A stretch of 64,000 nucleotides of DNA, from assembly GCF_003334785.1 (NCBI RefSeq), contig NZ_QOWV01000001.1. One strand, written 5' to 3'. This document shows, piece by piece, positions 54,567 to 54,640 of this stretch. The position numbers and the translations under genes were made by a program. Within the stretch, counting starts at the first letter, position 1; each line of letters opens with the position of its first letter. Below the pieces are notes generated by a model. The model ran no database searches and was not told the origin of the DNA. It worked only from the letters and a program-made list of their open reading frames with translations. Source of the stretch: Escherichia coli. GTDB lineage: Bacteria > Pseudomonadota > Gammaproteobacteria > Enterobacterales > Enterobacteriaceae.

Positions 54567-54604
54567 GTTCTCTGTAAGCCTTATTTTATTGAAGCACGCA
54601 GGAT

Positions 54605-54622
54605 AGCTAACACGTGTACGCT
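54605..54622 (-). promoter_or_regulatory. FabR operator (palindrome AGCGTACACGTGTTAGCT on the fabA strand)
   Basis: Plus strand agctaacacgtgtacgct, an 18-bp near-perfect palindrome upstream of fabA. Confidence 0.6.
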
Positions 54623-54623
54623 G

Positions 54624-54640
54624 AACAAGTCCGATCAGTT
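54624..54640 (-). promoter_or_regulatory. FadR activator site of fabA
   Basis: Reverse strand AACTGATCGGACTTGTT resembles the FadR consensus AACTGGTCNGACCTGTT; lies about 60-75 bp upstream of fabA ATG, abutting the ycbZ stop codon. Confidence 0.6.

Follow-up and report, generated by a model that had tools for sequence, protein, structure and literature searches.

The fabA gene represents the first committed step of unsaturated fatty acid synthesis, and its regulation by FadR, which activates synthesis and represses degradation, is a standard example. The fabA promoter has reportedly been described by Henry and Cronan (1991/1992), Zhang, Marrakchi, and Rock (2002), and Feng and Cronan (2009, 2011), and EMSA work on the FabR protein of Escherichia coli is said to have been presented by Feng and Cronan (2011) and Zhu et al. 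(2009). According to the literature, long-chain acyl-CoA releases FadR, unsaturated acyl thioesters enhance the binding of FabR, and the effect of FabR is stronger on fabB than on fabA.

In E. coli, FadR is located over the -40 region of the fabA promoter, and the site of FabR overlaps the -10 region (PMC3462791). The published transcription starts of the gene comprise S1, which is activated by FadR, S2, which is repressed by FabR, and an acid-induced third start, S3, 203 nt upstream of the ATG (PMC7083825). In the EMSA probe fabA_ec-BD-F / fabA-F, the FadR site is marked at AACTGATCGGACTTGTT and the palindrome for FabR at AGCGTACACGTGTTAGCT (PMC4537474; PMC4259882), and a shift of the fabA_ec-BD probe by FadR has been reported (PMC4537474). 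In Salmonella, the presence of FabR at the fabA promoter was documented by ChIP-qPCR (PMC4804515). On the transcript level, ycbZ and fabA act as an operon with a secondary promoter immediately upstream of fabA (PMC4161252).

The current study deals with the junction of these two genes in a 64-kb stretch of E. coli DNA, hereafter termed the window. We assign a probability of roughly 0.95 to the reading that the junction is the canonical sigma-70 control region of fabA, consisting of a weak core promoter with an activator operator for FadR and a repressor operator for FabR. The sequences, their statistical significance, the probe identity, the parallel with fabB, and the conservation were established in our own analysis; protein binding, the direction of regulation, and the ligands are taken from the literature. 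The FadR/FabR control region of fabA is already published biology, and nothing presented below changes that picture. Mildly new are the depth to which the overlap between the FadR operator and the ycbZ stop codon is conserved and an apparent lineage-specific decay of one FadR half-site.

Genomic setting

The window is part of the E. coli chromosome and contains the gene groups pqiBC–rmf, fabA–ycbZ, and matP–ompA, and the K-12 record shows the same order, i.e., pqiB-pqiC-rmf, fabA-ycbZ on the minus strand, and matP. The fabA coding sequence for the 3-hydroxydecanoyl-ACP dehydratase/isomerase occupies positions 54048-54566 of the minus strand, with the ATG at 54566, according to the open reading frame, its translation, and the RefSeq annotation of identical DNA. 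Upstream on the same strand is ycbZ (54635-56395), which encodes a Lon-like AAA ATPase/protease and terminates with a TGA codon (54637->54635). The intergenic gap of 68 bp agrees with the K-12 annotation. A segment of 901 bases around the site, annotated as fabA and ycbZ, is present in all complete E. coli genomes (5,426/5,426). Four copies of the fabA-ycbZ segment in these genomes are located on replicons labeled as plasmids, which is unusual for a core chromosomal locus; they may represent mislabeled replicons or large chromosomal captures.

The ycbZ-fabA unit ends at a strong bidirectional intrinsic terminator (53996-54020; 11-pair stem, T-runs on both strands), which is common to the convergent genes rmf and fabA and which, according to the RNA-seq literature, is at times passed by rmf transcripts that continue into the ycbZ-fabA unit. 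In the coordinates of the window, the published start S3 corresponds to position 54769 of the minus strand (converted from PMC7083825). The CpxR box GTAGAagaagGCAAA has been placed at -272 to -258 relative to the fabA ATG (PMC7083825), and the sequence given in Table 1 of that paper has an exact match at 54824-54838 of the minus strand. Because S3 and the CpxR box are situated well within the ycbZ coding sequence, this gene carries several control elements of fabA besides the overlap with the FadR site.

The FadR and FabR operators

The operator of FadR, a protein of the GntR family, is the activator site and is located at 54624-54640 on the minus strand, about -47 to -31 (plus strand, aacaagtccgatcagtt; gene strand, AACTGATCGGACTTGTT, 54640->54624). 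Next to it, at 54605-54622, lies the FabR operator, an 18-bp imperfect palindrome (plus strand, agctaacacgtgtacgct; gene strand, AGCGTACACGTGTTAGCT, 54622->54605) that ends 38 nt upstream of the fabA ATG. The presumed recognition elements are CTGATCGGAC on the FadR side and the half-sites AGCGTACA/TGT..GCT for FabR. Both sites had been proposed in a sequence-only reading of the window, which described them as directly adjacent upstream of fabA; the letters of either site proved to be correct, and only the single base 54623 separates them.

For the FabR operator, palindromy alone is unremarkable. The site forms 7 of 9 possible pairs, a repeat search returned overlapping arms of 11 nt with 82% complementarity, and as many as 119 18-mers of the 64-kb window have at least 7/9 pairs, so that the sequence match is what counts. 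A FabR matrix was built from the published sites of E. coli fabB (fabB_Ec) and of Shewanella fabA and desA (fabA_She, desA_She), with E. coli fabA excluded. The scan with this matrix was decisive, since the palindrome obtained a score of 26.1 and rank 1 of 63,983 positions. The next match reached 12.3, and no score above 20.2 occurred among 200 simulated sequences of 64 kb. The second-best match, AACTTACAAGTGTGAACT in the upstream region of ompA (58309-58326, plus strand), is with its 12.3 at chance level (simulated mean, 12.5). The palindrome in the fabA promoter has the half-sites AGCGTACA and TGTACGCT of an 18-bp FabR operator, and it lies over the core promoter (spacer/-10) and adjoins the FadR site as at fabB. 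Its assignment to FabR is thus backed by an independent matrix as well as by the marking of the same palindrome in the published probe.

The FadR site AACTGATCGGACTTGTT conforms to the 17-bp consensus aaCTGGTCnGACC(T/A)Gtt (PMC9329746) with 2 mismatches and is the sole match with at most 2 mismatches in the 64-kb window, where 0.08 would be expected; any match occurred in 4/100 shuffles. The matrix scan for FadR, which had been suggested as a check together with that for FabR, was less uniform. By consensus the site is significant, and it took rank 1 with a leave-one-out matrix including fabB; with a matrix restricted to the five fad repressor sites, it reached only rank 6 in the window, below the shuffle maxima. 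The fad-only matrix is not decisive by itself because its sites are too few and too divergent, and weight was consequently placed on the published consensus, the identity with fabB, and the conservation. A stretch within the fimbrial-like adhesin gene elfG (40535-40551, plus strand; GTCTGGTACGATCAATT) has a FadR-matrix score of 17.2-17.7, equal to or above that of the fabA site; it is probably a chance match and illustrates the weakness of the small FadR matrix.

The minus strand from 54649 to 54595 is base for base the probe fabA_ec-BD-F / fabA-F, and this DNA was shifted by wild-type FadR and not by its W60G mutant (PMC4259882). The claim that the region is the tandem FabR and FadR control region of fabA is hence supported by the identity with the EMSA probe and by the agreement of the literature positions. 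One might object that, in so short an intergenic stretch, both motifs resemble operators by accident and play no part in regulation, given that imperfect 18-bp palindromes are common (the 119 18-mers mentioned above) and that the fad-only FadR matrix scores intragenic sites higher, e.g., the one in elfG at 40535-40551. We give this possibility virtually no chance: the FabR-matrix score is far above every simulated maximum, the FadR consensus match is unique in the window, the module is duplicated at fabB and deeply conserved, and probes of identical sequence have been used in experiments. A coincidence is effectively refuted by the conservation together with the published EMSA.

Putative core promoter and proposed regulation

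The putative core promoter on the minus strand is composed of a -35-like hexamer, TTGTTC (54623-54628; 3/6), which shares its first five bases with the 3' end of the FadR site, and a -10-like hexamer, TATCCT (54600-54605; 4/6), which begins with the final base of the FabR palindrome, a T. With a spacer of 17 bp, it matches the consensus at 7/12 positions. A generic sigma-70 scan of 53700-55000 returned no promoter above the threshold because the elements reach only 7/12, a value that is typical of an activator-dependent promoter, and we did not count this outcome against a promoter. Across genera, the pattern TA...T of the -10 element is kept (TATCCT/TAACCT/TAAGAT/TATTCT/TAATCT), and the TTG of the -35 element is conserved in nearly all loci. 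Measured from these presumptive elements, the center of the FadR site would fall at about -39/-40, in agreement with the "-40 region" of the literature (PMC3462791).

The transcription start of fabB has been mapped 37 nt upstream of its ATG (PMC7083825), which fits the homologous -10 element TATTGT within one base. By homology, the fabA start is predicted at about 54593-54594, and the 5' leader would comprise positions 54567-54594 of the minus strand, a length deduced from the position of the -10 element and from fabB. The exact places of the -35, the -10, and the start are inferred from the sequence, and the two overlapping promoters that have been published (S1/S2) are more complex than our assignment of a single -35/-10 pair. 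The leaders of fabA (54570-54578, minus strand) and fabB (L002, about 1813-1821, minus strand) have the 9-mer CTTACAGAG in common, immediately before the start codon. In the fabA leaders of other genera, AAGGCTTA is retained and the CAGAG part is not (CTTACTGAG, CTTATTGTA...), so that the identity of the 9-mer between fabA and fabB is maybe partly due to chance.

The layout is compatible with the following mechanism. A FadR dimer would bind the 17-bp site centered near -40, overlapping the -35 element, and would activate transcription; an operator that ends in the -35 hexamer and is centered at about -40 would fit an activator contacting the RNA polymerase at a poor -35. In the presence of exogenous fatty acids, long-chain acyl-CoA would release FadR, and the expression of fabA would fall. 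A dimer of FabR (YijC), a member of the TetR family, would bind the 18-bp palindrome, fill the whole spacer, touch the -10 element, and repress by occluding the RNA polymerase, and this binding would be enhanced by unsaturated acyl thioesters. Further fabA promoters and the CpxR box within ycbZ would add to this control, and ycbZ transcripts would read through into fabA.

Readthrough from ycbZ

The palindrome is located directly past the stop codon of ycbZ, a gene without a recognizable terminator of its own, and could therefore be suspected to function in the RNA, where a hairpin or terminator would put an end to the ycbZ transcript, and not as a protein operator. The folding data make this very improbable. 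The 81-nt transcript segment has a free energy of -12.5 kcal/mol (z = +0.78), 158/200 shuffles reach or exceed this stability, the palindrome is not self-paired in the MFE structure, and no T-run follows it. Across species, the half-sites are fixed and changes at the central bases follow no requirement for pairing, and the RNA-seq literature reports readthrough and a ycbZ-fabA operon. An intrinsic ycbZ terminator with a GC-rich hairpin and a U-run was considered as a candidate and rejected, as the fold had the z score given above and a search of the minus strand at 54567-54640 found no terminator-like sites; the segment had no match in Rfam either. Without a terminator, significant structure, or Rfam match, ycbZ transcripts must read through the operators.

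Conservation of the module

A scan for FabA with one genome per species yielded 80 loci from Enterobacterales, Pasteurellales, and Vibrionales. The block CTGATCGGA(C/G)TTGTT-N-AGCGTACA-NN-TGT-NN-GCT, with TA...T behind it, has been preserved in genera ranging from Escherichia to Proteus and as far as Vibrio. In these 80 loci, the majority fraction amounts to 0.85 in the FadR part (core, CTGATCGGACTTGTT) and 0.88 in the FabR part, compared with 0.64 in the flanking 3' coding region of ycbZ and 0.65-0.68 in the leader, and the 36-bp module is the best-conserved noncoding block. Variation affects both central bases of the palindrome, two positions of one half-site, and the first two bases of the FadR site, a pattern that is expected for dimer operators. 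Of the 5,426 complete E. coli genomes, 5,386 have the 55-bp region without any change.

Upstream of orthologous fabA genes, the FadR core CTGATCGGA(C/G)TTGTT is kept in most Enterobacterales and is also present in some loci of Pasteurellaceae and several of Vibrio. In the loci of Erwiniaceae and Pectobacteriaceae the core has decayed, and inspection of the region about 70-105 nt upstream of fabA revealed two situations. In Brenneria, Pectobacterium, and Dickeya (L030, L032, L033, L049), the left FadR half is lost (CGTAACAGAC...) and the stop codon of the ycbZ ortholog is located 20 nt upstream. In seven loci of Erwinia, Pantoea, Tatumella, and Rosenbergiella (L034, L040, L042, L055, L057, L059, L067), the site reads TTAATC, with TAA replacing TGA; the TAA lineages are Erwinia, Tatumella, Rosenbergiella, and most Pantoea. 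The lineages with a decayed FadR site still have the FabR palindrome, often in a more symmetric form (AGCGTACAGCTGTACGCT). The decay of the FadR half-site suggests a lineage-specific loss of the FadR activation of fabA.

A palindrome located 15 nt upstream of the FadR site, AACTGGTTnAACCAG, was first taken as the FadR site in about 20 loci and was discarded when the raw sequences placed the true site usually beside FabR. This FadR-like element, AACTGGTT(N)AACCAG, lies inside the ycbZ ortholog of about 18 loci, including Yersinia, Serratia, Pantoea, and others. It encodes the residues NWFNQ/H, has perfect arms in 6/78 loci, and is degenerate in E. coli (AACTGGTTTATTCCG, 54641-54655, minus strand). 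Its occurrence is likely driven by the coding sequence of ycbZ.

The ycbZ stop codon inside the FadR operator

The TGA stop codon of ycbZ (54635-54637, minus strand) corresponds to positions 4-6 of the FadR site, which also covers the last sense codon, AAC (54640-54638), so that 6 bp of the operator are in the reading frame of ycbZ. The FadR operator extends this far into ycbZ because the gap between the two genes is only 68 bp. The sequence-only reading had let the FadR site end at the last base of the stop codon, which is 3 bases off and contradicts its own coordinates; its statement that the fabA promoter and the 3' terminus of ycbZ share DNA is correct in the form of the 6-bp overlap. Apart from this 3-base misstatement, the observation was confirmed and the interpretation supported, and a textbook dual-regulator promoter was thus recognizable correctly from raw sequence alone.

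The stop codon of the ycbZ ortholog is a TGA at positions 4-6 of the FadR site in 46/80 loci, from Escherichia to Proteus plus one Vibrio. Photorhabdus loci and L035 were left out of this count due to implausible "downstream" stops, which are probably artifacts of the tblastn alignment ends. When the loci were anchored on FabR alone, a TGA was found at this place in 52 loci, 51 of which have at most one mismatch in the FadR core, and the FadR sites of the seven loci with a TAA at the same place are decayed. Judged from this distribution, the overlap is to be regarded as ancient, reaching as far out as Vibrio. The literature searched contained no mention of the overlap between ycbZ and the FadR site or of its phylogenetic depth, and the report on the ycbZ-fabA operon (PMC4161252) is silent on the overlap.

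A functional coupling might be imagined, in which the TGA is co-selected as stop codon and half-site, or in which bound FadR/FabR gates the readthrough of ycbZ transcripts into fabA. Such a coupling would be in line with the 46/80 loci that have the TGA at positions 4-6 of the site, with the 51/52 FabR-anchored TGA loci with at most one mismatch in the FadR core and the decay in the seven TAA loci, and with the lack of a terminator between ycbZ and fabA. Moreover, the consensus G at the respective position would turn the stop codon into Trp and extend YcbZ by 18 residues. However, fabB has the same CTGATC half-site without an upstream codirectional gene, and the stop codon therefore does not explain the nonconsensus A. 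The YcbZ residues before the stop vary freely (NWFIPN, NWFNH, NWFNQ...), so that the frame perhaps just continues until it meets a stop, and a TAA gives two core mismatches by construction. Taken together, we consider a functional coupling unlikely. Read most simply, the two genes are tightly packed, and the upstream frame continues until its earliest in-frame stop, whose position falls within the operator.

A tentative idea, more probably wrong than right, is that the left FadR half-site and the stop codon of ycbZ form one dual-use element older than the split of Enterobacterales and Vibrionales. The half-site would then have decayed in the lineages whose stop changed to TAA (Erwinia, most Pantoea, Tatumella, and Rosenbergiella) or moved upstream (Pectobacterium, Dickeya, and Brenneria), with the FabR palindrome being kept or becoming more symmetric. 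If this is true, FadR activation of fabA would have been lost in these plant-associated lineages, and only control by FabR would remain. A deletion of ycbZ or a C-terminal tag that removes its last two codons would damage the FadR site of fabA. The additions made here matter mainly for regulon annotation or for the engineering of the ycbZ-fabA junction.

Comparison with known systems

The published E. coli fabA promoter represents the same locus with an identical probe sequence, FadR as the activator at about -40 and FabR as the repressor in the spacer/-10 region. There is no difference between the published description and ours, which adds only that 6 bp are explicitly shared with ycbZ and how far this overlap goes back in phylogeny.

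The unlinked fabB promoter, whose comparison had been proposed as a further check, turned out to contain the same module. Its elements have the same order, FadR-1bp-FabR-(-10), with the same 1-bp gap, and the two promoters share 16 identical bases, CTGATCGGACTTGTTC, followed by GCGTACA.GTGT..GCTAT. The -10 element TATTGT of fabB begins at the last base of the palindrome, as at fabA. The FabR palindrome of fabB, GGCGTACAAGTGTACGCT, is closer to perfect than that of fabA, and the fabB leader is 9 nt longer. The neighbor of fabB, mnmC, is divergent, and the FadR site is free of any coding overlap, whereas that of fabA overlaps ycbZ.

More distant counterparts are the fabA promoters of Shewanella oneidensis (probe TAGCTGATCGGAGTTGTTTAGCTTACACGTGTTCGCT) and Vibrio (L077, L082), in which a FadR site and a palindrome for FabR likewise stand in tandem, equally spaced, with several base differences. 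In Vibrio, the upstream gene stops 3 nt before the FadR site in 2/3 loci and not inside it. The operators of the fad regulon (fadBA, fadL, fadD, etc.) belong to the same 17-bp family, aaCTGGTCnGACC(T/A)Gtt, as the sites of fabA and fabB. The latter two carry CTGATC...ACTTG, in contrast to CTGGTC...ACCWG in the fad operators, which overlap the -10/+1 region and repress, whereas the sites of fabA and fabB are located at -40 and activate.
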